DNA from: an uncultured Akkermansia sp.
GTDB taxonomy: Bacteria > Verrucomicrobiota > Kiritimatiellia > RFP12 > JAAYNR01
Reading direction: 5' to 3'
Length of the DNA stretch: 64,000 nt
Assembly: GCA_964506575.1 (NCBI GenBank)
Contig: CAZDLY010000005.1
Span: 5,131 to 69,130, forward strand
The notes beneath the pieces were generated by a model. It searched no databases. It saw nothing but the letters and a program-made list of their open reading frames with translations, and was not told the origin of the DNA. Below, piece after piece: positions 3,571 through 54,610 of this stretch (position 1 is the stretch's first letter; each line of letters begins with the position of its first letter). The position numbers were made by a program, and so were the translations under genes.

Positions 3571-4629
3571 CGAACCGTGGATCAAATGGGCCGCCGCGCC
3601 CAGGTTGCCGCGCAGGTCGTCATTTTCCGCAACCGCCTTCAGCGTGGCCGGGGTTCCGCGATAGCCGTATTTGCGGATCAGCCCGTCGATGGCCGGGTCC
3701 TCGCCGAATTCCCTGAGCGCCGGGGCGAGGACGATCAGTTCGCCGCCGTCGGCGACCGCCAGGCGCGTGCGGTAGATCGCCTTGTTGCCGAGCCAGGTGC
3801 TCTGAAACTCGTGAGGATCGAGAGCAACCACCACTTTCCGAGGCTCGCGGTCGAGCAGGGTGATGTTCACCCGGCGCGCCAGCTTGCACGCCTCGTGATA
3901 CACCTGCGCGTCATCCCCGGCATAAAAACCGCGCAGATGCATCTGCCGCGTGACGGCATCCTGCTCGACCACCGTCAGAATGTAGGTGATCGGCAGATCC
4001 CCCAGAAACGTCTCGACGGCCGTGTTGAAGAGCCGGCGCACCGGCGTATCCGCCCGGCCGAGGATGGTCTCCATGTTGCAGACCGCTCCCAGGAAATGCG
4101 ATTTGTTGATGATGTCCGCCCCGCCCGCGCCCACGACGATATTCTTGGTGTAATTGGCCATGCCGGCCACTTCGTGCGGCACGACCTGCCCGATCGACAG
4201 GATCAGGTCGTAACCGTCGAGGAGCCGCCGGCTCACCTCCACGCCGACCGGATAGTCGGCCCGGCCTCCGGAAAGCGCGGCGAGCAGCGTCCCGGGAAGC
4301 TCGCCTCTGCGGACAATCCCGTTGCGCCAGTCATGCACCCGGAAGGCCGTCAACGGGATCGCGTCCCCAAACATCAGGCGAATCTGCCCCTCCGTCATGG
4401 CGTTGTGCGTGCCCAGGGTCGGCATCACGTCCACCCGCGTGCCCCGGGCCGTCAGCGCCTCGTAGGCCATCGCGGTGACCGCCCCCGCCTGCGAATGGAT
4501 GCGGGTGTGATCGGGTGGCAGCAGAAGCACGCGGCGCAGGGCTTCCGGGCGCGCGTCCAGCGTTCGCAGCACCAGCGCGCGCAGCTCCTCGCGCGAAATC
4601 GAGACCTGCTCTCCGCACTGCCTGATCAT
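3346..4629 (-). CDS. LarA-like (lactate racemase N-terminal domain / DUF2088) family protein
   Basis: 427 aa. Motif pattern ..LLLPPDHTR.., ..GTHN.., ..VVPHEVAGMANYTKN.. corresponds to the LarA-family H..AG..G..K block that includes the cofactor-binding Lys. Substrate unknown. Confidence 0.6.
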   Translation of the reverse strand: MIRQCGEQVSISREELRALVLRTLDARPEALRRVLLLPPDHTRIHSQAGAVTAMAYEALTARGTRVDVMPTLGTHNAMTEGQIRLMFGDAIPLTAFRVHDWRNGIVRRGELPGTLLAALSGGRADYPVGVEVSRRLLDGYDLILSIGQVVPHEVAGMANYTKNIVVGAGGADIINKSHFLGAVCNMETILGRADTPVRRLFNTAVETFLGDLPITYILTVVEQDAVTRQMHLRGFYAGDDAQVYHEACKLARRVNITLLDREPRKVVVALDPHEFQSTWLGNKAIYRTRLAVADGGELIVLAPALREFGEDPAIDGLIRKYGYRGTPATLKAVAENDDLRGNLGAAAHLIHGSSEGRFRITYCPGFGVGLEEVRAVGFDAVPYAEMAARYNPDWLQDGWNRMPDGEEIFFISNPALGLWAYREKFEQ

Positions 4630-43448: not shown

Positions 43449-43510
43449 TCGCAAGGGCGCTTACTTAAGCGATGCTTCCGATCATAATCATAATCCGTTC
43501 TCCACCATGA

Positions 43511-43545
43511 GATTAAGATCAAGATTAGGATTACGATTAAGATGG
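43511..43545 (-). repeat. 6-nt periodic module (GATNNN x6) containing repeat module B in reverse orientation
   Basis: gattaa gatcaa gattag gattac gattaa gatgg. The reverse complement of 43519-43541 matches 34760-34782. Confidence 0.75.
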
Positions 43546-51959: not shown

Positions 51960-52068
51960 GGTCCGCAGGCGCCTCCATCATCAGCGGCTCGGCGGGACGC
52001 CGCCGCCCTACCCGCGCGTTGCGCCTTTCCCGGAATCCTGAACCCTTTCTCGTCCCCGCATAAGCGGG

Positions 52069-52097
52069 TTGACGAAGGGAAAGCGGGAGAGCATAAT
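52069..52097 (+). promoter_or_regulatory. Candidate sigma-70-type promoter for the FGE-family gene
   Basis: TTGACG, 17 nt, CATAAT. Pattern match only. Confidence 0.3.
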
Positions 52098-52209
52098 GCG
52101 GACACTGGTTGAGGCGGGAAAGGCTCTTCTTGAACCCCTGAACTCTGTGTGACCTTACGGGTGCCATCGGGACGAATGTGGCGCCGGGGCATTTGGAAAT
52201 CGATACGGA

Positions 52210-53205
52210 ATGGAGCGATGCATGAGGCAATTACTCATACGATTAATGAGGATGATGGCGGCGGGTTTCGTGTGTCTGCTGACGGGTTGTGTTAGCCCGG
52301 GCGATTACATGGTCATCGACCTCTCAGGCGGTCCGGGCGCGGGGAGTTACCCCGTCTCCTATCTCGGCACCGTTCCTTCCGGTGGATGGACCGACACCTA
52401 CAAGACCACCAAGCTGGTGATGCGGAAGATTTCCAGGGGGACGTTCACCATGGGCGGGATGTCTACGGATTATCCCGGCGCAGGCGATGACGGATTGCAT
52501 CAAGTGACGCTGACCCAAGACTTCTACATCGGGGTCTTCGAAGTGACGCAGCGGCAGTGGGAGCTGGTGATGGGCAACAAGCCCAGTTATTTCAACAACG
52601 TCACCTACTATGCGAGCCGCCCGGTGGAGCAGGTCAGTTACTGCGATATCAGGGAGAACCCGACGAACGGTGCAATCACTCCAAACTGGCCACAGTCGTC
52701 GCAGGTGCATGCGGACTCCTTCATGGGCAAGCTGAGGGCCAAGACCGGATTGGCGACCGTCGACTTGCCGACGGAGTCGCAGTGGGAATACGCCTGCCGG
52801 GCGGGAACGACGACGGCGCTGAACTCGGGATATAGTCTGACGAGCACGGACAGCGACCCACGCATGGATGCGGTCGGCCGGTATATTGGCAACGGCGGCG
52901 GGTATGGGGAGACGCGGAACGTTGACACGAGCGTGGCGACGGCGAAAGTCGGCTCGTATCTGCCGAACGCATGGGGCCTCTACGACATGCACGGCAACAT
53001 GTGGGAGTGGTGTCTGGACTGGCACGGGGCGTATCCCGGGACGGTGGAAAATCCTGGAGGTGCGGCGTCGGGGTCGAGCCGCGTGGGGCGGGGCGGGAGT
53101 TGCATCAGCAACGCGGACTACTGCCGTTCGGCGTTTCGCTACAATTTCTGGCCGGGTAACCGGAGCTACAACTTCGGCTTCCGCGCCGCCAGGACCCTGC
53201 CATAG
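52210..53205 (+). CDS. Formylglycine-generating-enzyme (SUMF1/FGE-sulfatase) family lipoprotein
   Basis: Lipobox ..FVCLLTGC. FGE-domain motifs: ..YIGVFEVTQRQWELVMG.., ..RPVEQVS.., ..LPTESQWEYACRAGT.., ..WGLYDMHGNMWEWCLDW.., ..RGGS.., ..FGFRAAR... Confidence 0.85.
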   Translation: MERCMRQLLIRLMRMMAAGFVCLLTGCVSPGDYMVIDLSGGPGAGSYPVSYLGTVPSGGWTDTYKTTKLVMRKISRGTFTMGGMSTDYPGAGDDGLHQVTLTQDFYIGVFEVTQRQWELVMGNKPSYFNNVTYYASRPVEQVSYCDIRENPTNGAITPNWPQSSQVHADSFMGKLRAKTGLATVDLPTESQWEYACRAGTTTALNSGYSLTSTDSDPRMDAVGRYIGNGGGYGETRNVDTSVATAKVGSYLPNAWGLYDMHGNMWEWCLDWHGAYPGTVENPGGAASGSSRVGRGGSCISNADYCRSAFRYNFWPGNRSYNFGFRAARTLP

Positions 53206-53225
53206 CCGGGTACGGCTACCCTCAA

Positions 53226-53257
53226 CCCGGCCATCTCCCAGTCGGGAGAGGGCCGGG
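53226..53257 (+). terminator. Strong interrupted 13-bp hairpin just after the FGE-family gene
   Basis: cccggcc-a-tctccc-agtc-gggaga-g-ggccggg. No obvious U-tract. Confidence 0.4.
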
Positions 53258-53320
53258 CAGGAGATGGATGGAACGGGAAGAACGAGTAAGACTGAAGGCG
53301 AGTGAGGGATGGGGGTGTTT

Positions 53321-53401
53321 CTTGAGGCGGGAGAATCGAATAAATCGATAGAATCGACGGAATCGAATCGGTCGAATCGGTCGAATCTATCGATTCCATC
53401 G
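53321..53401 (+). repeat. GAATCGA-type periodic array, left flank of the four-helix-bundle gene
   Basis: It contains the 24-nt core aatcgacggaatcgaatcggtcga (53352-53375). This matches 54214-54237 at 22 of 24 positions, in the same orientation. It ends in tcgattccatcg, as the right copy does. Confidence 0.8.
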
Positions 53402-53419
53402 AAACGAAAGGAGCGGGAC

Positions 53420-54169
53420 ATGAGCCTATTCGGCGGGACGGGTGGCTACTTCTGGCTGGATTCGTGGATTCTGGCCAATATCGTTCAGCTTGGGACGCAA
53501 CGCTTCTGCAAGCGCTTCCTGAACCGCACGAACGATCCATGCGGGCGACAGTACGACCAGATGACGCAGGCCGCACGGTCGGGGTGCGCAAACATCGCCG
53601 AGGGATCGGCGCGACGGGCGACCTCTAAAGAAACCGAGATGCGGCTGACGGACGTGGCTCGGGCGAGTCTGGCGGAATTGGCAGGCGACTACCTGAACTG
53701 GCTTTTTCAGCAGGAGAAGGTCCCCTGGGGCAAGGAGACGCCCGAGGCGCGGGCGGTTTACGCCGTGCGCTTGGACAAGGCGGCGTACGACGAGGATGTG
53801 GTGCATGATGCCTGCGCGCACATTCTGACGCAGAAGCGGAAGTTTGCAGTGTGGCTGGAGTCGGAAAGCGACGAGACGATGGCGAACACACTCCTTATTC
53901 TTATTGCGCGGGTGATCAACATGCTCAACCACCAGATGGAGAAGCAGTGCGAGACTTTCAAAGAGGAGGGCGGCTTTCGCGAAAAGCTAACCGGCCTGCG
54001 AGTGGAGGCGCGGGCGAAGCAGGAGGCCGCGCCGGTTTGCCCCGACTGCGGCAAGGCGATGACGCGCCGCACGGCCAAGAGCGGCAAGAACGCGGGGAAG
54101 GGATTTTGGGGTTGCACGGGATACCCGGAGTGCACCGGCGTGAGGGAACTCGAAGGAGAGAAGAAATGA
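53420..54169 (+). CDS. Four-helix-bundle (23S rRNA IVS-type) protein with suffix domain and C-terminal topoisomerase-type C4 zinc finger
   Basis: 249 aa from ATG 53420 (AAAGGAG RBS). ..QMTQAARSGCANIAEGSAR.. is the four-helix-bundle family signature. The middle region resembles the 'four helix bundle suffix' domain seen in PVC genomes (recall). The C-terminus CPDCGKAMTRRTAKSGKNAGKGFWGCTGYPEC is the zf-C4-topoisomerase pattern. Confidence 0.75.
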   Translation: MSLFGGTGGYFWLDSWILANIVQLGTQRFCKRFLNRTNDPCGRQYDQMTQAARSGCANIAEGSARRATSKETEMRLTDVARASLAELAGDYLNWLFQQEKVPWGKETPEARAVYAVRLDKAAYDEDVVHDACAHILTQKRKFAVWLESESDETMANTLLILIARVINMLNHQMEKQCETFKEEGGFREKLTGLRVEARAKQEAAPVCPDCGKAMTRRTAKSGKNAGKGFWGCTGYPECTGVRELEGEKK

Positions 54170-54185
54170 GAGCGAGTTCTGGTTT

Positions 54186-54256
54186 TTCGAGGGGAATCGA
54201 ATGAGTCGAGAAAATCGATGGAATCGAATCCGTCGATTCCATCGATTCCATCGCTC
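54186..54256 (+). repeat. GAATCGA-type periodic array, right flank of the four-helix-bundle gene
   Basis: See 53321-53401. It contains the perfect 8-bp inverted pair ggaatcga/tcgattcc (54222-54242). Confidence 0.8.
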
Positions 54257-54280
54257 CCGATAAACCCGGCTCAATCCTGT

Positions 54281-54329
54281 TTCCATCCGGCTGCAGGCTG
54301 GCGGCTTTCCTGAACCCCTGAACCCTACA
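54281..54329 (+). repeat. Repeat module A, second copy (core ttccatccggctgcaggctggcggc + ctttcctgaacccctgaaccct)
   Basis: The core is 23/25 identical to 35049-35073, and the tail is similar to 43694-43716. Confidence 0.8.
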
Positions 54330-54359
54330 CCCGCAAAACCGCCGTGGCGGTTTTGCGGG
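54330..54359. terminator. Near-perfect 13-14-bp hairpin between the four-helix-bundle gene and the PPDK remnant
   Basis: cccgcaaaaccgcc-gt-ggcggttttgcggg. It lies 11 nt downstream of the PPDK-remnant stop (minus strand) and is followed by a T-rich stretch on the plus strand. Confidence 0.45.
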
Positions 54360-54370
54360 TGCCTCCGGGA

Positions 54371-54610
54371 TCATTTCTTTCCATGCCGGATCGCGGCCTG
54401 GGCGGCGGCGACGCGGGCGATGGGGACGCGGTAGGGGGAGCAGCTCACGTAGGTCATGCCCTGGCGGTAGCAGAATTCGACCGAAGCGGGGTCGCCGCCC
54501 TGTTCGCCGCAGATGCCGATCTTGATGTTCGGCCGGGCCTGGCGTCCCTTCTGGGCGGCGATCTCGATCAGCATCCCCTCCCCGACCTCAACACCAACGG
54601 CGCCGCTCAC
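54371..54610 (-). pseudogene. ppdK: C-terminal ~79-aa fragment of pyruvate, phosphate dikinase
   Basis: ..[61 protein letters not shown].. is the extreme C-terminus of PPDK, an enzyme of roughly 880 aa. The track 'start' is a GTG. The rest of the gene is absent. Confidence 0.8.

Follow-up and report, generated by a model that had tools for sequence, protein, structure and literature searches.

Phased TCGA repeat arrays flanking a four-helix-bundle suffix-domain gene suggest a putative gene-repeat partnership in PVC-group and Bacteroidota bacteria

RAYTs, the REP-associated tyrosine transposases, are encoded by genes flanked by their own REP/REPIN palindromes. Short repeated sites are also bound cooperatively by MetJ (met-boxes at 8 bp), by omega and ParG (heptads in direct and inverted order), and by ParR (iterons), and the binders of such tandem operator- or centromere-like arrays are ribbon-helix-helix proteins. 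The S23p/Avd superfamily of four-helix bundles is very large, and Avd, the accessory variability determinant of diversity-generating retroelements, which binds the reverse transcriptase and is required for cDNA synthesis, is, to our knowledge, its sole member with a known function; we know of no periodic arrays around avd. Members of the superfamily are encoded by ORFs in the 23S rRNA intervening sequences of Coxiella and Leptospira (PMC4990558), and the S23p protein of X. campestris (PDB 2gsc) is a homopentamer (PMC4990558).

The window analyzed here, a 64-kb stretch of DNA from a Kiritimatiellia genome, contains a gene of this superfamily between two repeat arrays, together with the following features.

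52186-52215, plus strand: candidate degenerate left-end copy of the array element (weak), just 5' of the FGE start codon
52210-53205, plus strand: gene for an FGE-sulfatase-domain lipoprotein (PF03781, 1e-35), target of a diversity-generating retroelement (DGR)
53226-53257, plus strand: hairpin 3' of the variable region, candidate DGR target hairpin (-17.4 kcal/mol, z -6.1)
53312-53331, plus strand: G/T-rich left boundary of the array element (GGGGGTGTTTCTTGAGGCGG); homology to the lone element of L001 begins at 53312
53332-53402, plus strand: left array, 8 TCGA cores, 9-bp period, GC 42%
53407-53413, plus strand: Shine-Dalgarno sequence aaaggag, 6 nt 5' of the ATG at 53420
53420-54169, plus strand: four-helix-bundle gene, 249-aa protein of the S23p/Avd superfamily
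54193-54254, plus strand: right array, 6 TCGA cores and one degenerate, 9-bp period
54255-54302, plus strand: right boundary sequence of the element (ctcccgataaacccggctcaatcctgtttccatccggctgcaggctgg), also at the right end of the lone element of L001
54309-54361, no strand assigned: CCTGAACC repeats (54309-54325) and a perfect 16-bp hairpin (54328-54361), outside the element
54371-54610, minus strand: C-terminal remnant of pyruvate phosphate dikinase (PPDK), 79 aa, PF02896

The product of the gene at 53420-54169 is a four-helix-bundle suffix domain-containing protein, in which TIGR04258 ("4helix_suffix") at residues 151-199 scores 62 bits (cut-off 40) and TIGR02436, the N-terminal four-helix-bundle domain, scores 29.1 bits (cut-off 24). 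The bundle and the "suffix" helix domain are followed by a topoisomerase-type C4 zinc ribbon (PF01396, residues 207-244, 32.3 bits with a cut-off of 32), and the PF05635 match (27.3 bits) is under the gathering score of 33.8. An AlphaFold2 model (pLDDT 84) is helical over residues 14-201, and its best fold matches in the PDB, 2gsc and 2rld of the S23p family, are weak (E-values of 0.02-0.14). Searches of Pfam, NCBIfam, PHROGs, and PADLOC returned four-helix-bundle, suffix, and zinc-ribbon matches only, with no HUH/Y1 transposase-like domain; PADLOC gave nothing for the protein, and PHROGs gave one weak match of zinc-ribbon size. The gene has its own ribosome-binding site, as the initial annotation had stated, and the spacing of the Shine-Dalgarno sequence is the same in most homologous loci. 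The family amounts to 1020 clusters at 50% identity (E<=1e-10), and its Prevotella branch has at least 7963 matches. Full-text literature searches turned up no account of the arrays or of the biology of TIGR04258.

The initial annotation had also related the gene to those residing in 23S rRNA intervening sequences. This relation holds at the level of the superfamily (PF05635), whose proteins are pentameric four-helix bundles, but not for the TIGR04258 subfamily, which lies among protein-coding genes. The neighbors of the gene at 53420-54169 are protein-coding, and the gene is not within a 23S rRNA gene; at 53150-54450, the Rfam search found no rRNA or other family but only sub-threshold hairpin noise, and no tRNAs were found near the locus. 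As in the intervening sequences, complementary sequences that could pair into a long stem lie on either side of the gene, and the sporadic distribution of the gene suggests transfer. However, it stands outside rRNA and not in helix 9, 25, or 45, its flanks are internally palindromic, periodic, and in direct orientation, and the protein has the added suffix domain and zinc ribbon.

Both flanks of the gene carry TCGA cores in strict phase. Eight cores in the left flank (53336, 53345, 53354, 53363, 53372, 53381, 53390, and 53399) follow one another at steps of exactly 9 bp, and six in the right flank (54197, 54206, 54215, 54224, 54233, and 54242) are followed by a degenerate TCGC at 54251, which gives six to seven units. 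When the three-core pattern TCGA-N5-TCGA-N5-TCGA was searched over the whole window with up to one mismatch, 11 matches lay in the two flanks versus 0.27 expected for all 64 kb; only 2 weak matches, both coding, lay elsewhere, and 0 of 100 shuffles attained 13. The GAATCGA heptamer alone shows no enrichment across the window (15 observed, 14.2 expected), so that what stands out is the clustering in phase and not the word itself. The left array begins with GAATCGA-type units and continues with TCGA(A/T)TC-type units to form an imperfect palindrome, while the right array has the same orientation and unit sequence and contains a perfect 15-bp inverted repeat. The reading of these flanks in the initial annotation, that is, same-orientation copies bracketing the gene, inverted pairs inside each copy, a gaatcgaat common to both starts (53333 and 54194), and tcgattccatcg common to both ends (53390 and 54233/54242), was borne out, each flank being an imperfect palindrome; the match of 22/24 in a 24-nt core is also correct, with its second coordinate shifted by one (53352-75 versus 54213-36).

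Hundreds of genomes from the PVC group and Bacteroidota, spanning Kiritimatiellia, Lentisphaerae, Verrucomicrobia, Planctomycetota, and Bacteroidota, carry the module of gene plus arrays. Among the 30 closest homologous loci, an array stands on at least one side of the gene in 29 and on both sides in 19. Arrays were detected as in-phase runs of cores; sliding lag-9 identity was abandoned because it was too insensitive to arrays whose units reverse direction and picked up spurious matches in coding DNA. In a set of 80 loci, runs of at least 4 units in phase occur in 34 of 77 upstream and 35 of 77 downstream flanks, as against 0 of 160 control regions inside the gene and 4 of 137 far away. The period depends on the protein clade: it is 9 bp in the cluster of the window (39/39 arrays), 10 bp in three other clusters, and 8 bp in Bacteroidales. 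Unit sequence and period are common to both flanks of one gene, and paralogues in one metagenome-assembled genome differ from each other (aaTCGAatc versus TATCGATAt, or 9 bp versus 10 bp). A Prevotella subfamily devoid of the zinc ribbon carries downstream 9-bp arrays with CTAG cores in 4/4 distinct loci. That the arrays are chance low-complexity sequence, or a generic intergenic motif of the host unlinked to the gene, might be suggested by the unenriched heptamer and by perfect TCGATTCNN microsatellites in unrelated phyla, but this deserves almost no credence and is refuted by the excess of phased matches, by recurrence over the 80 loci at both flanks of homologues from several phyla, and by the clade-specific period. 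Coding constraint is likewise excluded as the general origin of the 9-bp period by the 8-bp and 10-bp periods of other clades.

The reading we prefer, tentatively and at slightly below an even chance, is that gene and repeats form a conserved partnership, in which the arrays are putative cognate binding sites and modules are lost by recombination between arrays. The binding-site reading, which the initial annotation had offered as its alternative, is favored because period and unit sequence covary with the protein clade, and the sites are probably those of the encoded protein itself, although plain linkage and shared descent would also give the same covariation. The module consists of a TIGR04258 gene, here with a C-terminal zinc ribbon, and of array elements on its two sides, each self-contained and about 70-120 bp long; within an element, a G/T-rich leader precedes 5-10 units that have a TCGA core and a length of 9 bp, the first units lying opposite to the rest. 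One subunit might occupy each 8-10 bp unit to allow cooperative DNA binding beside the protein's own gene, which seems plausible because the solved relatives of the fold are pentameric rings. Two observations sit less well with this scheme: the zinc ribbon is the obvious DNA-binding part of the protein, yet it is dispensable for the association because relatives in Prevotella that do not have it also carry arrays, and the downstream-only arrays of Prevotella fit poorly with simple promoter autorepression. Tandem operator- or centromere-like arrays likewise consist of short units that abut one another, each with a core that is palindromic or oriented, mix direct and inverted order, and lie beside the gene of the presumed binder. 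In contrast to these, the putative binder here is not a ribbon-helix-helix protein, and the arrays stand on both sides of the gene, or downstream only, and also far off. The pairing of arrays with TIGR04258 is a first handle on a large family of unknown function, to which a conserved cis partner brings a testable protein-nucleic-acid pairing.

Another possibility is that the arrays work in RNA, as stem-loops at the 5' and 3' ends of the transcript that stabilize, process, or insulate the mRNA, like the RNase III-cut terminal stem of S23p intervening sequences or REP elements at 3' ends. Metatranscriptome contigs include the gene and span both arrays from 53312 to 54490, which indicates that the arrays are transcribed. 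As single-stranded DNA, the two flanks fold strongly (-20.8 and -21.6 kcal/mol, with z of -3.5 and -3.75), as longer arrays do (-30 to -55 kcal/mol), and the left and right flanks, each of which also self-pairs, show 78% complementarity over 55 nt. Arrays without the gene occur just 3' of stop codons, and in paired units 41% of the variable positions are complementary versus ~26% expected, as a hairpin in RNA or single-stranded DNA would have it. However, 59% of the variable positions are unpaired, and the folding energies of sense and antisense strands are equal (33 versus 38 arrays, p=0.31), so that there is no strand bias, no sense-strand advantage, and hence no G-U signature; strand-specific RNA structure was rejected on this ground. 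Furthermore, the upstream arrays of L023 and L024 are located 5' of a sigma-70-like promoter (read by eye), the Prevotella arrays, which are downstream only, are mostly one-directional and barely self-complementary, no Rfam family was matched, and the strict clade-specific period is left unexplained. We thus consider the RNA-level role quite unlikely, and the equal folding of the two strands, with the arrays placed before promoters, argues for a role at the DNA level rather than in one RNA strand. The arrays were also rejected as terminators: no intrinsic terminator was predicted at 53150-54450, and a T-run of at least 4 follows 1 of 39 arrays.

In layout, the gene-repeat partnership that we prefer most resembles REP/RAYT, in which the RAYT gene is flanked by REP sequences. 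In both, a single-copy gene lies between its own family of short palindromic repeats, repeats without the gene are scattered in intergenic gaps, often just past stop codons, paralogues within a genome are each matched to a repeat variant of their own, and the contexts of the gene are stable and look vertically inherited. The cognate palindromic repeats that flank the gene were indeed found dispersed in intergenic gaps, in a small sample of arrays biased to one unit sequence. This sample comprises 11 convergent arrays without the gene in the stretch retrieved: 9 have no gene in a stretch of up to 8 kb, and 2 lie beside an L002-type DGR with the gene within ~4 kb, one of them on L002's own contig. 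Most are situated 7-24 nt 3' of a stop codon, in short intergenic gaps, and some share a metagenome-assembled genome with the gene; they might not be functional sites but simply the remains of cassettes since lost. The differences from REP/RAYT are that the protein here is a four-helix bundle without an HUH/Y1 nuclease motif and that the repeats are phased 8-10 bp units with a 4-bp palindrome, whereas REP sequences are single palindromes of 20-40 nt. A broader idea, possible but rather doubtful, is that S23p/Avd-like suffix proteins are partners of unrecognized dispersed periodic repeats in PVC bacteria and Bacteroidota, that each clade recognizes and maintains or spreads its own arrays in a REPIN/RAYT-like manner without a known nuclease, and that the arrays serve as recombination joints that shuffle neighboring genes, including DGR modules. 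If so, this class of repeats, whose units of 8-10 bp enclose a 4-bp palindrome (for example, TCGA or CTAG), would reach human-associated Prevotella.

The locus occurs in three natural haplotypes, which are distinguished by the presence or absence of entire modules and whose breakpoints, 52007 and 53312, coincide with the array-element boundary. L001 carries at 52007 a 173-bp lone array element with both the left and right boundary sequences of the cassette, and its positions 1479-1596 match 54194-54302 of the window at 87%; the left array of L001 is 2 units shorter than that of the window. In L384, 52007 is joined straight to 53312, the whole FGE module is absent, and the left array is a recombinant hybrid. 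The X3 DNA contig and the X24 RNA contig join 52158 to 53312. The weak candidate left end at 52186-52215 (ggggcatttgg aaatcgata cggaatgga) resembles 53312-53365 (GGGGGTGTTT...AAATCGATA...CGGAATCGA) when read by eye. The preferred reading would account for these haplotypes by recombination between arrays that removes the intervening DNA and leaves a lone or hybrid array, since the arrays are direct repeats and such recombination deletes what stands between them. The three haplotypes show the arrays to be breakpoints at which neighboring genes are gained and lost in a natural lake population, one such gene being a DGR target, and this bears on the assembly and dismantling of accessory loci, hypermutation systems included. 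The same loci recall integron cassettes with attC, in which genes are separated by imperfect palindromic elements, in that modules (FGE target, RT-TR-HRDC, and four-helix-bundle gene) are gained, lost, and reordered at the elements. Unlike those cassettes, they have no integron integrase and show a 9-bp period instead of the attC R''-L''-L'-R' boxes, and the hybrid array of L384 is accounted for by ordinary homologous recombination.

The initial annotation had raised the possibility of a small non-autonomous insertion cassette here. The layout is real and family-wide, and modules are gained and lost at array-element boundaries, but the variable modules are the lone array and the upstream FGE gene, and the helix-bundle gene, which is never missing in this population, is not the moving module. 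The comparisons by which the initial annotation could have been refuted turned out in its favor: the sister genome L001 has the gene with the same flanks, and the paralogue L029 of the same metagenome-assembled genome has arrays in its own unit sequence. The array-gene-array unit might still be a present or past insertion element into intergenic gaps, moved by a recombinase in trans or by the protein itself, with lone arrays as recombination footprints. Such a history is compatible with our main explanation, and we judge it unlikely. The lone element of L001, with both boundary sequences, does look like a collapsed cassette, the genomic contexts of the gene in different lineages are unrelated, and the protein of this Kiritimatiellia genome shares 82% identity with its counterpart on a 5.97-Mb Planctomycetota scaffold. 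For the housekeeping Tex, identity is 84% and 81% in the two best relatives and at most 72% in the other 78. Many homologues are found on contigs of 1-2 kb, which would be expected if repeats interrupt assembly, and the array partner may explain this frequent location. On the other hand, the identical protein has the same stable gene context wherever it is found, across many samples, and Pfam annotation revealed no integrase, transposase, or tyrosine recombinase within 6 kb. The combination of terminal inverted repeats and target-site duplication that characterizes insertion sequences and MITEs was not found, no duplication being present at the lone element of L001, the L384 junction, the array edges, or the arrays without the gene. 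No copies of the family were found in phages, and the plasmid search gave zinc-ribbon matches plus one full-family copy, 33% identical, on a 568-kb Prevotella replicon. Nor is there a clean empty site: the relatives found via Tex have no FGE, four-helix-bundle gene, arrays, or conserved downstream gene order, and L211 does not qualify as a clean empty counterpart of the L002 site, the homology being limited to the array and 50 nt. Given no target-site duplication, recombinase, or phage copy, and a single distant plasmid copy, insertion at this site stays putative.

The FGE gene upstream of the cassette has a variable region at ~53056-53201 with an IMH-like end (...CGCCGCCAGGACCCTGCC), and the differences between the FGE of the window and that of L001 are concentrated in the C-terminus. 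Its template repeat was predicted first and then located on another contig, L376; mismatches in the variable region fall at template adenines in 19/23 cases in the window and 22/26 in L001. The hairpin at 53226-53257, which has 13 pairs (14-nt arms with one mismatch), a 4-nt loop, and no T run, is also present after the target gene of L376. Since Avd is in the same fold superfamily (PDB 4DWL; PMC10053308), the protein might be an equivalent of Avd, with the arrays as cis elements that mark or organize the DGR modules (target, RT-TR, and HRDC). In line with this, the gene lies directly 3' of a DGR target here, and in L002, L003, L004, and L024, a full or partial DGR without canonical avd adjoins the gene, with mismatches between variable region and template at template adenines in 25/26 and 23/23 cases; in L081, L024, and L376, arrays stand 5' of the RT gene and on either side of the target gene. 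The presumed nucleic-acid partner also comes right after the gene, as with avd. However, the window has no RT motif, RT homologue, or template repeat, and L375 and L376, the contigs with a template matching its variable region, have HRDC but not the four-helix-bundle gene, so that coding next to RT and template repeat, as for Avd, is seen in L002, L003, L004, and L024 and not in the window, L375, or L376. The protein is also twice the size of Avd, with suffix and zinc-ribbon domains, and three other contigs of the population, which elsewhere differ from the window by 0.2-0.8%, carry an identical variable region. Most copies of the gene have no nearby DGR, with RT within 3 kb in only 4/80 loci and an FGE neighbor in 5-6/80, and most DGRs do not have the gene: an RT-based search, which yielded 77 further DGR loci, found gene and arrays only in L081, which is L002's own contig, and neither of them in the 76 others. 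An Avd-like accessory role is thus very unlikely in our estimation, the DGR link was rejected as a general explanation, and the adjacency to a DGR target in the window is probably a secondary association.

Beyond the right array, the truncated PPDK gene noted by the initial annotation is confirmed by its PF02896 match, and the reading frame is longer in sisters, that of L384 having 315 aa and that of L001 at least 125 aa. The repeat module that had been placed together with a hairpin after the right flank is also present, and the stem is 16 bp and not 14 bp; the copy number of CCTGAAC differs among haplotypes. The left array is an open reading frame, in frame with the gene at 53420-54169, and in L002, the reading frame of the next gene runs through the right array.

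The gene for the four-helix-bundle protein is bracketed in the window by two arrays of in-phase units built around a TCGA core, arranged as follows.

53336-53402, left flank of the gene: left array, eight TCGA cores at an exact 9-bp spacing
53407-53413, plus strand: strong RBS (aaaggag) preceding the gene
53420-54169, plus strand: ORF of the helix-bundle protein, 249 aa
54197-54254, right flank of the gene: right array, six TCGA cores and a degenerate seventh

A phased pattern of three cores gave 11 matches in the two flanks versus 0.27 expected across the 64-kb window, and none of 100 shuffles came near that count. The bare heptamer GAATCGA is not enriched across the window, and the signal therefore lies in phasing and clustering. 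In both flanks GAATCGA-type units come first and TCGA(A/T)TC-type units follow, which makes each flank an imperfect palindrome; folded as single-stranded DNA, the flanks reach -20.8 and -21.6 kcal/mol (z about -3.5 and -3.75), and as copies in the same orientation they agree at 79% over 68 nt. The initial annotation, which had described such direct copies around the gene, was correct in its details of the flanks except for a one-base offset, and the hairpin it reported beyond the right flank is present, with a stem of 16 bp, not 14. Because the period equals three codons, some reading frames stay open through the arrays. An ATG at 53309 opens a frame that runs through the left array into the gene (53309-53419), and several database entries are for that reason 20-32 residues longer. 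On L002, a contig carrying a diversity-generating retroelement (DGR), the ATG of the next gene overlaps the stop codon, and its frame crosses the right array before entering a signal peptide (MRGFWDFSRESRESRKSKESIQSNRSIPSILSRAGLVAAALF...; 3745-3860).

The 249-aa protein scored 62 bits against TIGR04258, “four helix bundle suffix domain” (cut-off 40), and 29.1 bits against TIGR02436, four-helix-bundle protein (cut-off 24). It also matched the topoisomerase-type C4 zinc ribbon PF01396, while its match to PF05635, which is Avd-like (PMC10053308), was below threshold. In an AlphaFold2 model (pLDDT 84), residues 14-201 are helical and a small three-stranded ribbon is placed at 213-243; the best PDB matches, with weak scores, were the S23p-family proteins 2gsc and 2rld. 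The former, S23p of X. campestris, is described as a homopentamer (PMC4990558). The helix-bundle suffix family is large, with 2595 proteins by word search and 1020 clusters at 50% identity (E<=1e-10).

The arrays are a trait of this family. Homologous loci, 80 in all, were taken from species-representative genomes in the Kiritimatiellia, Lentisphaerae, Verrucomicrobia, Planctomycetota, and Bacteroidales. The nearest 30 (68-98% identity) include 25 with an upstream array, 23 with a downstream array, 19 with both, and 29 with at least one. When runs of at least four in-phase copies of one 4-mer were sought over all 80 loci, they were found in 34/77 upstream and 35/77 downstream flanks, compared with 0/160 for intragenic controls and 4/137 for controls 1 kb away, some of these four being real extra arrays. 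The period follows the protein clade: it is 9 bp in all 39 arrays of the window's protein cluster, 10 bp in three other clusters, and 8 bp in Bacteroidales. The unit sequence is common to both flanks of one gene and differs between paralogues within a metagenome-assembled genome, as in JBIJDW01 (aaTCGAatc versus TATCGATAt), CAZSNT01 (9 bp versus 10 bp), and Geminisphaera TAV2 (AATCGACTTA versus T.ACGACAGG). A distant subfamily lacking the zinc ribbon (at least 7963 hits, including WP_004367454.1 of the isolate Prevotella nigrescens) has downstream 9-bp arrays with CTAG cores in four of four distinct loci, and therefore it is the helix-bundle and suffix part of the protein that the arrays accompany, rather than its zinc ribbon. 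Two contigs encoding an identical protein of this subfamily differ in their array units; the arrays change faster than the gene. In one lineage (L009 and L166-L173), the helix-bundle gene lies directly 3' of a 270-aa gene, which is DUF1189 in the P0004 contigs (L166-L173), and no array separates the two. The array of L009 instead stands upstream of the 270-aa gene, and the pair is therefore bracketed as one unit.

We infer that the arrays are putative cognate sites of the encoded protein, which would act as an oligomer. In one plausible model, each 8-10 bp unit would accommodate one subunit, so that the geometry of the protein would set the period and the period would co-evolve with the protein. 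The nearest likeness in layout is a RAYT gene with its REP sequences, and genes that have cognate repeats both at their flanks and dispersed elsewhere are already a known kind of arrangement. A full-text literature search turned up no work on these arrays or on TIGR04258 biology, and there is a fair chance that they represent a new kind of protein-repeat partnership.

One main rival to this reading is that the arrays work as RNA hairpins, as in the intervening sequences in which S23p occurs (PMC4990558). Metatranscriptome contigs, produced in a study that also yielded some of the DNA runs, do cover 53312-54490 with both arrays included, and their coverage exceeds that of the variable region in the upstream FGE gene, although depth of contigs is an unreliable measure and some DNA may have been carried over. 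In paired units, 41% of the variable positions are complementary versus about 26% expected, which indicates some pressure or history towards pairing, with most of them unpaired. On the other side, the sense strand had no folding advantage over the antisense strand in 80 arrays (33 versus 38, p=0.31), and therefore there is no G-U signature of a strand-specific RNA. Only one of 39 arrays is followed by a T-run, and the left side is G-rich; neither terminator nor promoter was predicted at the window locus, and a sigma-70-like promoter was seen by eye between array and gene in two other loci (L023 and L024). Taken together, the evidence favors a DNA-level element with dyad symmetry, and a hairpin may still play a role.

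Some arrays have no such gene beside them. When the genome collection was searched for exact runs of three RAATCGA-N2 units, at least 120 stretches were returned, and among the matches listed, most were three-unit hits or perfect microsatellites from unrelated phyla, and 13 were convergent arrays of the window kind, with the gene present in the fetched stretch for 2 and absent for 11. Two of these 11 adjoin the L002-type DGR, no more than about 4 kb from the gene; one of the two is on the contig of L002 itself. The other nine have no gene in a fetched stretch of up to 8 kb. The gene-less arrays occupy short gaps between same-strand genes, typically 7-24 nt after a stop codon, and some belong to metagenome-assembled genomes that also hold the gene (JAAYLN01 and CAYZQL01). 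The sample is limited in size and skewed to a single unit sequence, and for that reason no ratio of gene-less to gene-linked arrays is given. About a third of the close loci have extra arrays 1-3 kb from the gene. A true mobile cassette, as the initial annotation had proposed beside binding sites, would make the gene-less arrays its footprints; this second main rival is compatible with cognate sites. In the Verrucomicrobia MAG CALLYA01, at least nine contigs (L181, L186, L199, L215, L217, L220, L228, L231, and L238) carry TCGA-periodic arrays, several at contig ends and some as long one-directional runs of up to 15 units, which suggests array expansion and assembly breaks at arrays. Perfect 9-bp microsatellites, for example (TCGATTCCG)n and (TCGAACGAA)n, occur in unrelated phyla (Gemmatimonadetes, Microthrixaceae, and Pirellulaceae; L175, L176, L223, L253, L284, and L292); they probably have no relation to the arrays linked to the gene, and they produce false positives in pattern scans.

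The locus has three haplotypes.

Haplotype A, the window: Tex, 25 bp and an intergenic stretch, FGE gene, hairpin, and cassette (the helix-bundle gene with its arrays)
Haplotype B, Kiritimatiellia MAG L001, about 95% identical with the same gene order: a 173-bp lone element exactly after 52007
Haplotype C, contig L384, about 94.6% identical: 52007 joined directly to 53312

The lone element of L001 has the make-up expected of a collapsed cassette, with a single array between the left and right boundary sequences of the cassette. L384 lacks the entire FGE module (52008-53311), and its left array is a hybrid whose left part resembles the L001 lone element (95.8%) and whose right part resembles the cassette's left array. 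Recombination between the two array copies of haplotype B, which are direct repeats, would leave haplotype C; in the reverse direction, the FGE module might have been inserted into an array. Both the B-type junction and a further junction of 52158 to 53312 are present in Logan contigs of lake metagenomes, and the recurrence of 53312 in independent observations marks it as an element boundary. Haplotypes A and B differ by two 9-bp units in the left array, and loss of the helix-bundle gene was seen in none of the three. As direct repeats, the arrays would cause loss (or gain) of the intervening DNA, leaving lone or hybrid arrays behind. The pyruvate phosphate dikinase gene (54371-54610, minus strand) is a 79-aa C-terminal remnant in the window, and its frame is longer in L384 (315 aa) and in L001 (at least 125 aa). 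Since homology to each of these stops at 54586, the window lineage has a deletion next to the cassette.

The FGE neighbor introduces the third main rival, a DGR-specific role. The following features are concerned.

52210-53205: FGE-sulfatase lipoprotein gene
about 53056-53201, within that gene: variable region
53226-53257, 20 nt beyond the FGE stop codon: strong hairpin whose 14-nt arms form 13 pairs and one mismatch around a 4-nt loop, lacking a T run

Differences from the L001 orthologue fall almost all in the last 45 residues, a pattern typical of a DGR variable region, and the gene is a DGR target. A 21-nt template-repeat stretch predicted from the window and L001 variable regions occurred three times in a metagenome collection, and two of the three contigs (L375 and L376) show the order FGE target, hairpin, HRDC, reverse transcriptase (RT), and template repeat, with an array between HRDC and RT in L376. 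Mismatches lie at template adenines in 19/23 cases for the window and 22/26 for L001, and the 3' ends of variable region and template differ in the IMH/IMH* manner. The hairpin is kept after the L376 target gene and looks like the hairpin/cruciform downstream of the variable region in DGR targets. The 64-kb window contains neither RT nor template repeat, and three more contigs from the population, which elsewhere differ by 0.2-0.8% from the window, have an identical variable region; the FGE target is therefore without visible diversification now.

In four loci (L002, L003, L004, and L024), a DGR immediately adjoins the helix-bundle gene and arrays punctuate the locus; their textbook variable region/template pairs have mismatches at template adenines in 25/26 and 23/23 cases. 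The contig of L002, from a Kiritimatiellia MAG, holds a complete DGR with interspersed arrays (L081, 3607-7658) in the order array, FGE target, half array, RT with the template repeat in its 3' end, HRDC, array, helix-bundle gene, and array. The module order differs in L376 (target, HRDC, array, RT, template repeat), and the helix-bundle gene is absent from L375 and L376. These four loci contain no canonical avd gene, and the chance that the helix-bundle protein serves as Avd in the L002-type DGR clade is low but real. An RT lies near the helix-bundle gene in only 4 of the 80 loci, and none of 76 other DGR-RT loci has the gene or arrays, L081 alone having both. The DGR link is accordingly read as a recurrent but secondary association.

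Two further sorts of short repeat were observed. The motif (T)CCTGAACCC stands in tandem in several intergenic regions of the genome (43689-43716, 52037-52045, 52129-52143, and 54309-54325; L384, 1064-1092), and its copy number varies by haplotype, with two in the window and four in L384. The AT-rich intergenic stretch at 43481-43543 shows repeats with a 6-bp period (ATCATA x2.5, then AGATTA-like x5.7), and CCTGAAC repeats come after it; the sequence of these 6-bp repeats is unrelated to the TCGA arrays.
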